64,000 nt of DNA, taken from positions 14,775-78,774 of the forward strand of contig JBEKRC010000001.1 of assembly GCA_049997875.1 (NCBI GenBank), given 5' to 3'. The position numbers and the translations under genes were made by a program. Source of the stretch: Minisyncoccia bacterium. Its GTDB lineage: Bacteria > Patescibacteriota > Minisyncoccia > UBA6257 > 2-01-FULL-56-20. Within the stretch, counting starts at the first letter, position 1. The number at the start of each line of letters is the position of its first letter. The notes beneath the pieces were generated by a model that ran no database searches, was not told the DNA's origin, and saw only the letters and a list, made by a program, of their open reading frames with translations. Below, one piece after another: positions 13,101-16,100 of the stretch.

Positions 13101-16100
13101 CCCGAAAGATATTCCCGAATTTGCGCGAGAGCGTGAAATACTCGTTCTCGGAAAGAATCTGGCCGACGCGCAGGCGCTCCAAATATTCCTTTGTCGTGTC
13201 CGCCGCCTCAAGAATCTCTCCCTTCACGGTTTTGTCTTTATTGCCTATGGTTTTCAGCTTGCCCTTCAACTCGCGATTGAGCTCCGCAAGCGCCGCTTTC
13301 CGGTTCTCTTCTTTTATTTCCGTGATGATGTATGCCGAGTAGTATATGACGCGCTCCAGCTTCTGCGAAGAAACGTCAAGGGCGAGCGCCAAGCGCGAGG
13401 GAATGCTCTTTAAGAACCAGATGTGACCCACGGGCGCGGCAAGCACAATGTGGCCAAGGCGCTCGCGGCGCACGGCCGCGCGCGTGACCTCCACGCCGCA
13501 CTTGTCGCACACGACGCCTTTGTAGCGGATACGGCGGTATCGGCCGCAATAACATTCATAGTCTTTCGTGGGTCCGAAAATGCGTTCGGAGAATAAGCCG
13601 TCCTTCTCCGGCCGCTGGGTGCGGTAGTTGATCGTTTCGGGCTTTATCACCTCGCCATGCGACCACTTCAAAATATCCTCGGGCGACGCCACGCTTATTT
13701 TCAATGCCGAGAAATTATCCTTCCGCTCGGATTCCGTTTCATAGAGCGGCTGGATGTTAAACCCGAGCGATTTCAGTTCATTCACGAGCACGTTGAATGA
13801 CGCCGGCACATTCGGCTCTTTGATTGTTTCACCGCGGATGATGGATTCGTATGCCGCCGCGCGGCCCAAGACGTCATCCGATTTTATGGTAAGCATTTCC
13901 TGGAGCGTGTGCCGCGCGCCGTAGCCTTCCAACGCCCACACTTCCATTTCGCCGAAGCGCTGGCCGCCGAACTGCGCCTTCCCGCCCAACGGCTGCTGCG
14001 TGATGAGCGAATACGGGCCGATGGACCTCATGTGCGCCTTATCCTCCACCAAATGATTCAGCTTCATCATGTAAATCTGCCCGACCGTCACGCGGCTCTC
14101 AAACGGCAAGCCGGTGCGGCCGTCATAGAGCCTCGCTTTGCCGTCTTCGGGAAGCCCCGCTGCGCGCAGTTCCGCGCGGATCTGTTCTTCGGTCGCGGAA
14201 TCCAGCCCCGGCGTGATCGCGCGATAGCCCAATTTTGCGGCCGCCCAGCCGAGGTGGGTCTCCAAAATTTGCCCCAAGTTCATGCGCGAGACGACGCCCA
14301 ATGGATTGAGAATGATGTCCACCGGTGTGCCGTCTTCCAAATACGGCATGTCCTCCACGGCGCGCACTTGCGAGATGACGCCCTTGTTGCCGTGCCGGCC
14401 GGCAAGCTTGTCGCCCGCCTGAACCTTGCGCAGTTCCGCAATCTCCACTTGGATGCGGCGGATAATGCCCGGCTCCAATTTGTCGCCGCGCTCGCGGTCA
14501 AAGATTTTCACGTTCACCACGCGCCCGATCTTCCCGTGCGGAAGCGTGAGCGACGTGTCCTTCACGTCGCGCGCCTTCTCGCCGAAGATTGCGCGCAAGA
14601 GGCGCTCTTCGGATGTGAGTTCCGACTCGCCCTTGGGAGAAATTTTCCCGACCAAAATGTCGCCCGCTTTGACCTCGGCGCCGATGCGGATGATCCCCTC
14701 TTCGTCAAGATTCCTTAATTTATCTTCCGAAACGTTTGGAATATCGTAGGTCGTAACCTCGGGGCCGAGCTTCGTATCGCGGACATCATGCTCATAGCTG
14801 TCAATGTGGATGGAGGTGAAAAGGTCGTCGCGGACCACCCGCTCGGAAAGAATGATGGCATCTTCAAAATTCGCACCCTCCCATGACACGAAGGCGACGA
14901 GCAGATTCTGGCCGAGCGCAAGGACGCCGTTCGCAATAGATGGGCCGTCGGCGAGGATTTCTCCTTTCTTCACCTTCGCACCCGCGACGACGAGCGGCCG
15001 TTGCGAAATGCAGGTGAACTGGTTTGATCGTTTGAACTTTTCAAGAAGATAGTTCTTGGTTGTCCTCCCGTACTTCACTTTGATGTGCGTGCCGTCGGTT
15101 TCAAGTACCGTCCCGTTCTCTTCCGCAACCACCACATATCCCGAATCAAGCGCCACCTTTTCCTCCTCGCCCGTGGCAACATAGGGCGCATCTGGCCTTA
15201 CGGAAACGACGGCCTGCCGCTGCATGTTGGAGCCCATAAGCGCCCGATTCGCGTCGTCGTGCTGAAGAAAGGGGATTAACGCGGTCGCGACGGACACAAA
15301 TTCATGGGGCGCAACATCAATCAAATCAATCTCCTCTGGTGCGCACGTCCCTGGCTCCCCTTTGATGCGCGCTTCCACTGCCGTACCTTTGAGCCGCCCG
15401 TTTTCGTCCCGTGGCGTGCCGGCGTGCGTGATCTTGTATTTTTCCTCTTCCGAAGCATCCAGCCACACGATTTCTTTCGTCACGAGGCCGCTCACCACCT
15501 TTGCGTACGGCGCTTCCAGAAATCCAAAATCATTGATGCGCGTGTAGCTTGCGAGATAGTTGATCAAGCCAATGTTGGAGCCCTCCGGCGTCTGGATCGG
15601 ACAAATACGGCCGTAGTGCGAGCGGTGTACGTCGCGCACTTCAAAACTCGCGCGCTCGCGCGTGAGCCCGCCAGGACCCAAGGCCGATATCCTCCGCTTG
15701 TGCTCCAACTCGGCAAGTGGATTCACCTGATCCATAAACTGCGAAAGCTGCGATGATGCGAAAAATTCCTTGATGACCGCGGCGATTGGGCGGAAATTCA
15801 CGAGCTGCGCCGGCATCAAATTTTCTTTGTCTTCGGTGGACATCCGGTCCTGGATAATTCTTCGGAGCCGCGCCAAGCCGATGCGCAACCGTCCCTGCAA
15901 GAGTTCGCCGACCGCCTTCAAGCGGCGGTTGCCCAAGTGGTCAATGTCGTCTTCCTCCGCTTCGGAATTATTGTTGAGCGCTATGATTTCCTTCACGATG
16001 CCCACAATGTCTTCCTTATCCAAAAGTTTGCTTTCTTTCTTGCGGTCCAGCCCGAGGCGCTGGTTCATCTTGTAGCGGCCGACCTCGGAAAGGTCGTAGC

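Follow-up and report, generated by a model that had tools for sequence, protein, structure and literature searches.

We found that the two large subunits of RNA polymerase (RNAP) are encoded in the window (the whole 64,000-nucleotide stretch of DNA that was analyzed) by a single uninterrupted minus-strand open reading frame (ORF), in which beta is followed by a short linker and then by beta'. The reading that we favor, with a probability of about 0.9, is a genuine, vertically inherited rpoB-rpoC fusion in one Paceibacteria/Minisyncoccia lineage, in which the core enzyme would consist of alpha2 and a single beta-beta' polypeptide of ~250 kDa. The gene has what defines a natural beta-beta' fusion, i.e., one frame, no stop codon, and a junction that is conserved in relatives.

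The fused gene and its domains

A preliminary description of this DNA, based on the sequence alone, had claimed an in-frame fusion of rpoB and rpoC of about 2243 codons; the Rpb2 domains do precede the Rpb1 domains within one ORF, and the claim stands. In the ORF listing, the frame spans positions 10150..16902 of the minus strand and has 2250 amino acids (aa) if counted from a GTG codon. Counted from the ATG at position 16881, the gene has 2243 codons, which is the length of an identical database protein (P0001), and this ATG as the start fits the N-termini of homologs (MxKxLPxKxFSK...). Coordinates of the gene, of its parts and of its neighbors are collected in Table 1.

Pfam domains Rpb2 1, 2, 3, 45, 6 and 7 were located within aa 22-1044, and Rpb1 domains 1-5 within aa 1056-2150. 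The N-terminal part is recognized as a bacterial RpoB by the NF001616 profile (1521 bits, cut-off 896; aa 7-1044 aligned to profile positions 3-1093 of 1096) and scores 1504 with TIGR02013 (rpoB; cut-off 801), and the C-terminal part is recognized as a bacterial RpoC by TIGR02386 (1520 bits, cut-off 963.5; aa 1060-2220 aligned to positions 2-1140 of 1147). The catalytic motifs of the fused protein are all intact: the rifampicin-cluster motif, GGQRFGEMEVWALE, NADFDGD, both zinc motifs, the bridge helix, and the trigger loop. The zinc-binding motif YECYCGRYRRIRYKGVVCDKC comes after the RpoC N-terminus in the translation. The protein had also been described as compact, and the sizes agree with this: beta comprises ~1044 aa and beta' ~1188 aa, versus 2839-2890 positions in the profiles of the known fused families (the separate profiles have 1096-1238 positions for rpoB and 1147 for rpoC).

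Table 1. Positions in the window of the fused gene, its modules and motifs, and the neighboring features
Feature	Position	Strand	Remarks
Fused rpoBC gene	10150..16881	-	2243 codons + stop (TGA/TAA at 10150..10152)
Beta (RpoB) module, aa 1-1044	13750..16881	-	Rpb2 domains 1, 2, 3, 45, 6, 7
11-residue linker, aa 1045-1055	13717..13749	-	Translation and homolog alignment
Beta' (RpoC) module, aa 1056-2243	10153..13716	-	Rpb1 domains 1-5
Rifampicin-cluster motif QLSQFMDQVNPL	15715..15750	-	Beta module
GGQRFGEMEVWALE motif	13927..13968	-	Beta module
N-terminal Zn motif of beta'	13498..13560	-	Motif location
Catalytic NADFDGD	12238..12258	-	Beta' module
Bridge helix	11326..11403	-	Beta' module
Trigger loop	10936..10989	-	Beta' module
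ftsW/rodA	17907..19088	-	Ahead of mltG
mltG (YceG family)	16929..17897	-	Upstream neighbor of rpoBC
Best sigma-70-like promoter match	17118..17146	-	TTGACT-17-TATAAT, 11/12, consensus match only
rpsF (ribosomal protein S6)	9667..10110	-	Downstream neighbor of rpoBC
ssb	9045..9539		Downstream of rpsF
rplK	8299..8796		Downstream of ssb

The canonical rplKAJL-rpoBC context is absent: mltG and ftsW/rodA, not rplJ-rplL, lie upstream of the fused gene. Downstream, the order is rpsF, ssb, rplK, tmk, gatB. In the fused-clade loci examined, rpsF is directly downstream of the fusion in five out of five and ftsW-mltG is upstream in four; the remaining locus (L083) has other upstream genes. The 11/12 promoter match lies ~240 nt upstream of the rpoBC ATG, within the 3' end of mltG. 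It should be noted that the window also contains a 23S rRNA gene of ~3.9 kb, which harbors a LAGLIDADG endonuclease ORF and has no 16S rRNA gene next to it. Such features are often reported in genomes of the Candidate Phyla Radiation (CPR).

The junction and the linker

According to the preliminary description, the RpoB C-terminus continues into the RpoC N-terminus through an 11-residue linker, without a stop or a change of frame. The junction strings that it quoted were recovered exactly in the translation, and the linker falls within the interval of 13700-13760 that it had indicated. The consensus of the linker in the clade is P-[LIV]-Y-x-x-[ED]-x-[DE]-R-[KR]-[DE]; for example, the linker of locus L001 (Paceibacterota) reads PIYENETDHRD. 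In the junction alignment, 115 of 126 homologs have a linker as long as that of the window; insertions in a few members result in a spacing of 17-25 residues versus 12 in the window by the same count. At the DNA level, we compared the junction of the window with those of five other fused genes. Conserved residues of the linker show synonymous changes in these six genes: CCG/CCC for proline, TAT/TAC for tyrosine, CGG/CGC/CGT/CGA for arginine, and GAT/GAC for aspartate. Because the codons change synonymously where the residues are conserved, the junction frame must be translated and is under purifying selection.

At 78 split loci from many phyla, the two free tails add up to 12-65 residues (median 21). 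The window linker of 11 residues is at or below the minimum of these sums (12), and the corresponding value for Helicobacter muridarum is 26. The linker would be a tight tether between the two modules, and the conservation of its length and motif points to some constraint on the geometry of that tether. An AlphaFold2 model of aa 586-1570, built with 51 fused homologs at least 77% identical, had a mean pLDDT of 51 and a pTM of 0.37, values too low for conclusions on linker geometry. A search of the PDB turned up no natural fused beta-beta' chain.

A single ORF might nonetheless give rise to two proteins, through internal initiation near the junction or through cleavage at the linker, so that beta and beta' would work as separate subunits. 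We consider this improbable, although the window contains several elements that could serve such a purpose. The linker DNA (GAGCGGAAGGAT) includes a Shine-Dalgarno-like string, GGAAGGA, with a TTG codon 13 nt further on, a weak promoter-like match (9/12) is located at 13714..13742, and the conserved R-[KR]-[DE] of the linker might in principle act as a protease site. However, neither the Shine-Dalgarno-like string nor the TTG is kept in the five other fused genes, where the linker codons read, e.g., CGC AAG GAC, CGT CGG GAG, CGA AAA GAT, or CAC CGC GAC; the leucine of ALKI is encoded by TTG in the window only, and by CTC, CTA or CTG in the other genes compared. From the linker to the Zn motif, the homolog alignment shows no start (Met, Val or Leu) that is conserved, and no conserved internal start or ribosome-binding site was found ahead of beta'. 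The 9/12 promoter match is at chance level, and the H. pylori beta-beta' protein is cited as a single polypeptide. Initiation from GGAAGGA and the TTG was rejected as a candidate for lack of conservation; with start codons likewise not conserved and the promoter match at chance level, internal initiation at the junction appears unlikely in general. Post-translational cleavage at the linker, on which sequence alone has little bearing, is conceivable though improbable; a single beta-beta' chain is the preferred reading.

Distribution and phylogeny of the fusion

We searched 5.8 billion proteins for homologs and took the best 120 matches. All of these have both domain sets; most are 2240-2320 aa long and 71-100% identical, and five are fragments of 1894-2038 aa. 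A further search, started from the most distant match, added 12 fused clusters, with no split protein among the top matches. In total, there are more than 130 distinct 90%-identity clusters with the fused architecture, 68-100% identical, and their source names are Minisyncoccia, Candidatus Paceibacterota, Pacebacteria, Liptonbacteria, Ryanbacteria, and Parcubacteria group. Among 1.84 billion 50%-identity representatives, the whole fused clade is a single one (P0035). A stop codon or a frameshift at the junction, which the preliminary description had named as evidence against a fusion, is present in none of the >130 homolog clusters.

We also scanned GTDB species genomes with a 311-aa junction piece, which listed 80 loci. 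The matches are largely to universal motifs (e.g., FGEMEVWA) and come mostly from unrelated phyla. The occurrence of rpoB and rpoC in the same frame in all 80 listed loci was rejected as a signal: it results from ranking bias, because a single tblastn segment can cross a stop codon. With this bias, the scan does not show how the fusion is distributed. Only two of the 80 listed loci are fused, L001 (Paceibacterota) and L077 (Helicobacter muridarum). Seven loci represent split Patescibacteria, namely L002, L003, L005, L006, L009 (Zambryskiibacteriota), L025 (Saccharibacteria), and L078 (Nomurabacteria), and each of them has a stop codon, a spacer of 9-114 nt, and a Met start. A Spechtbacteria RpoB, also split, has 1074 aa and ends in LGLNVEIEETKED.

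In a neighbor-joining (NJ) tree based on 1831 gap-free columns, the fused proteins are monophyletic in 100 of 100 bootstraps. The fused clade is nested within Patescibacteria with L002 as its sister, although the clade boundary and the sister are approximate, the sample of split Patescibacteria being small (7 loci) and skewed by search ranking. Identity is at least 71% inside the fused clade and at most 63% to any split relative. Regarding the comparison with related genomes that the preliminary description had proposed, split genes do exist, but outside the well-supported fused clade, and the contig is not marked as chimeric. The fusion is an inherited trait, shared throughout one clade of ultra-small bacteria within the Paceibacteria/Minisyncoccia (CPR).

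The phylogeny also bears on horizontal transfer of the fused gene from Campylobacterota, Wolbachia or a haemotrophic Mycoplasma, a scenario that we regard as very improbable. Fusions do occur in several lineages, since the junction is also spanned by ~20 other 50%-identity representatives of more than 2000 aa, including Mycoplasma wenyonii and several alphaproteobacteria-like sequences. Nevertheless, the window protein groups with split Patescibacteria RpoB/RpoC, apart from Helicobacter and from the other fused representatives; the latter are all on long branches outside Patescibacteria, a placement that is dominated by those long branches. The window protein scores less than half of what either fused NCBIfam family requires, and it has an 11-aa linker and 2243 aa, versus a linker of ~26-27 aa in Helicobacter muridarum and 2890 aa in the Helicobacter-type model. 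Because the protein is below the curated cut-offs of both fused NCBIfam models, the Patescibacteria fusion must have arisen independently of the Helicobacter and Wolbachia fusions.

The possibility of a sequencing or assembly artefact (a lost stop or a compensated frameshift where rpoB meets rpoC, or a chimeric contig) is negligible: fragment proteins of 295-330 aa on 0.3-0.8 Mb contigs in some clusters indicate that some assemblies carry errors in this gene, but 10 contigs from ENA, JGI and NCBI data encode an identical product of 2243 aa, the junction is uninterrupted in >130 clusters down to 68% identity, substitutions at the junction are codon-wise and synonymous where residues are conserved, and the gene order around the fused rpoBC is largely conserved. 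Chance does not apply, because the fused architecture recurs in >130 independent protein clusters.

Origin and possible role of the fusion

A vertically inherited fusion could have arisen from closely spaced rpoB and rpoC genes through the loss of the rpoB stop and the rpoC start, with at most a small deletion. At the sister locus L002, the spacing between the two genes is only 9 nt. The shortest beta tail in split relatives is 7 residues past the last conserved beta motif (Spechtbacteria), and the shortest beta' lead is 2 residues before the conserved DF (P0171, MNDF...). Together with one former stop codon, these 7 + 2 residues give ~10-11 residues, matching the linker. Reversal would be hard, as it requires a stop codon, a ribosome-binding site and a start codon to be regained together; the need for several simultaneous changes may be part of the reason why the fusion was kept.

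Published natural and engineered fusions suggest that the tethered enzyme would work like ordinary RNAP, and that tethering would mainly fix the 1:1 stoichiometry and help assembly. By analogy, the enzyme is most likely a normal RNAP core whose large subunits are tethered. Any selective advantage of the fusion is a matter of conjecture. We put forward, as a doubtful proposal, that the fusion was selected and is not neutral: an ordered tether would pre-assemble the clamp and provide reliable RNAP in chaperone-poor cells, perhaps making up for a missing omega subunit, and the fusion would be an order-level clade marker. This proposal draws on the conserved P-[LIV]-Y...R-[KR]-[DE] of a linker that is shorter than any sampled pair of free tails.

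The fusion is already deposited and auto-annotated, with fused Parcubacteria proteins present in GenBank from 2015 onward (KKW47842.1), and there is one mention of it in the literature. Full-text literature searches did not turn up any account of how it is distributed over the clade or of the conserved linker. Annotation names are inconsistent ('subunit beta', 'subunit beta'', 'hypothetical', 'Multifunctional fusion protein'), and this mixed naming, together with the lack of a covering NCBIfam fused model, can disturb phylogenomic marker counts and completeness estimates. The fusion may be used as a rare genomic change that marks one Paceibacteria clade, and a minimal single-chain beta-beta' of 2243 residues with a natural 11-residue linker could be a template for recombinant or minimal RNAP designs. 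It should be noted that the Patescibacteria fusion opens no new biological question, and its interest is modest.

Comparison with known fusions

Fusion of beta and beta' is already a known kind of arrangement (PMC7483510, PMC9696931). One precedent is Candidatus Adlerbacteria, for which a single sentence in PMC11515920 (Protein Sci 2024) states that beta and beta' are fused. This CPR/Parcubacteria RpoBC, known here from that one sentence, is of the same type; neither the name nor the accession turned up in a search of supplements of that paper. The UniProt entries named 'Multifunctional fusion protein' from Liptonbacteria and Ryanbacteria (P0052, P0089, P0071) belong to the same clade as the window protein, with 72-77% identity.

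Engineered fusions resemble the window protein in having a tether of ~10 residues, and they yield active RNAP, which supports the view that the natural 11-residue linker is compatible with function. As reported via PMC3993855, E. coli beta-beta' fusions support growth with unchanged transcription properties (Severinov et al. 1997), and the same source describes an active M. bovis fusion with the 10-aa linker LARHVGGSGA. In contrast to the window protein, whose tails are trimmed, the engineered linkers sit on full-length native tails, which lengthens the effective tether. Judging by its title, Raudonikiene et al. 1999 report that H. pylori with separated subunits is viable; thus, a fusion of this kind can be dispensable.

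The preliminary description had likened the gene to the fusions of Helicobacter and Wolbachia, and the likeness holds as far as the general kind is concerned. The Wolbachia type (NF011417/PRK14844; cited in PMC7483510) is likewise a natural beta-beta' fusion in a reduced genome with a host-dependent lifestyle. However, it comes from a different phylum and has a model of 2839 aa, and the window protein is not a member, scoring 2082 bits versus a cut-off of 4632; the alphaproteobacteria-like fused representatives are on long branches outside Patescibacteria. The Helicobacter/Wolinella type (NF007172/PRK09603; Zakharova et al. 1998, 1999, as cited in PMC9696931 and PMC7483510) shares the in-frame passage from the end of beta into the start of beta', and subunit order and junction position are the same. 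Here too, the window protein is not a member, with 2217 bits in six separate stretches versus a cut-off of 5372, and Helicobacter lies far from it in the NJ tree; the two fusions are of independent origin. The linker is ~26-27 aa in Helicobacter versus 11 aa in the window, and the model of 2890 aa exceeds the 2243 aa of the window protein, which is shorter because it is without lineage-specific insertions.

The Patescibacteria proteins form a third, well-populated family of natural beta-beta' fusions that evolved independently, the most compact found here. Tethering of the large RNAP subunits is a recurrent solution, mostly in bacteria with reduced genomes, as exemplified by the CPR clade, Wolbachia-like alphaproteobacteria, and a haemotrophic Mycoplasma.

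Reading frame and gene calls of rpoB and rpoC

In the contig scan of GTDB genomes with the 311-aa piece spanning the rpoB/rpoC junction, rpoB and rpoC were found in one reading frame at all 80 loci among the matches listed, and the spacing between the two matched segments was a multiple of three at every one of these loci. It should be noted that this uniformity most likely reflects a ranking bias rather than biology, because genes that share a frame allow a single tblastn segment to run past the stop codon. In two protein clusters of fused RpoBC homologs (represented by P0011 and P0046), some members are fragments of 295-330 aa, although the contigs that carry them are 0.3-0.8 Mb long. 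In some assemblies, probably long-read ones, the 6.7-kb gene thus seems to have been split by indel errors and called piecewise.

Gene order and rRNA genes

In the window, rplK is located downstream of rpoBC-rpsF-ssb, not upstream of rpoB, and rplA (L1) is absent beside it. Among the five loci of Paceibacteria with the fused gene that we compared, rplK was downstream of rpoBC-rpsF in four, the exception being L086, and rplA was called beside rplK in none.

Features in the window outside the fused gene
Feature	Positions	Strand	Evidence
Seryl-tRNA synthetase ORF, 615 aa	1524..3371	-	Seryl_tRNA_N domain
rplK (L11), then directly tmk	7539..8796	-	
5S gene, after 23S	20633..20750		
23S rRNA gene, ~3.9 kb vs 2.9-kb model	21811..25728	-	rRNA model match
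LAGLIDADG homing-endonuclease ORF, 162 aa, inside 23S gene	22853..23341	-	E 4e-25
PheRS-type protein, 390 aa	28601..29773	-	Pfam domains and solved-structure matches
ORF, 1184 aa	48875..52429	-	PG_binding_1

The excess length of the 23S rRNA gene over the model, together with the LAGLIDADG ORF that it contains, implies at least one intron-like insertion. No 16S gene adjoins the 23S gene; its place upstream is taken by tRNA-Gly and tRNA-Glu.

Other protein-coding genes

Since the Seryl_tRNA_N domain begins as late as aa 192 of the seryl-tRNA synthetase ORF, either the protein has an N-terminal extension of ~190 aa or the ORF call is too long. The sole Pfam match in the 1184-aa ORF is the short peptidoglycan-binding domain, at aa 75-132; the Pfam search returned no match for the remainder.

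The 390-aa protein has the catalytic core of a class II PheRS (tRNA-synt_2d, aa 55-285), followed at the C-terminus by an FDX-ACB anticodon-binding domain (aa 296-390). Its top solved-structure matches are to human mitochondrial monomeric PheRS (E 4e-60, 207 bits), whereas bacterial PheS alpha subunits matched far more weakly (E 3e-36). Judging by domains and homology, this product of a CPR bacterium is thus predicted to have the single-chain PheRS architecture of the mitochondrial type.
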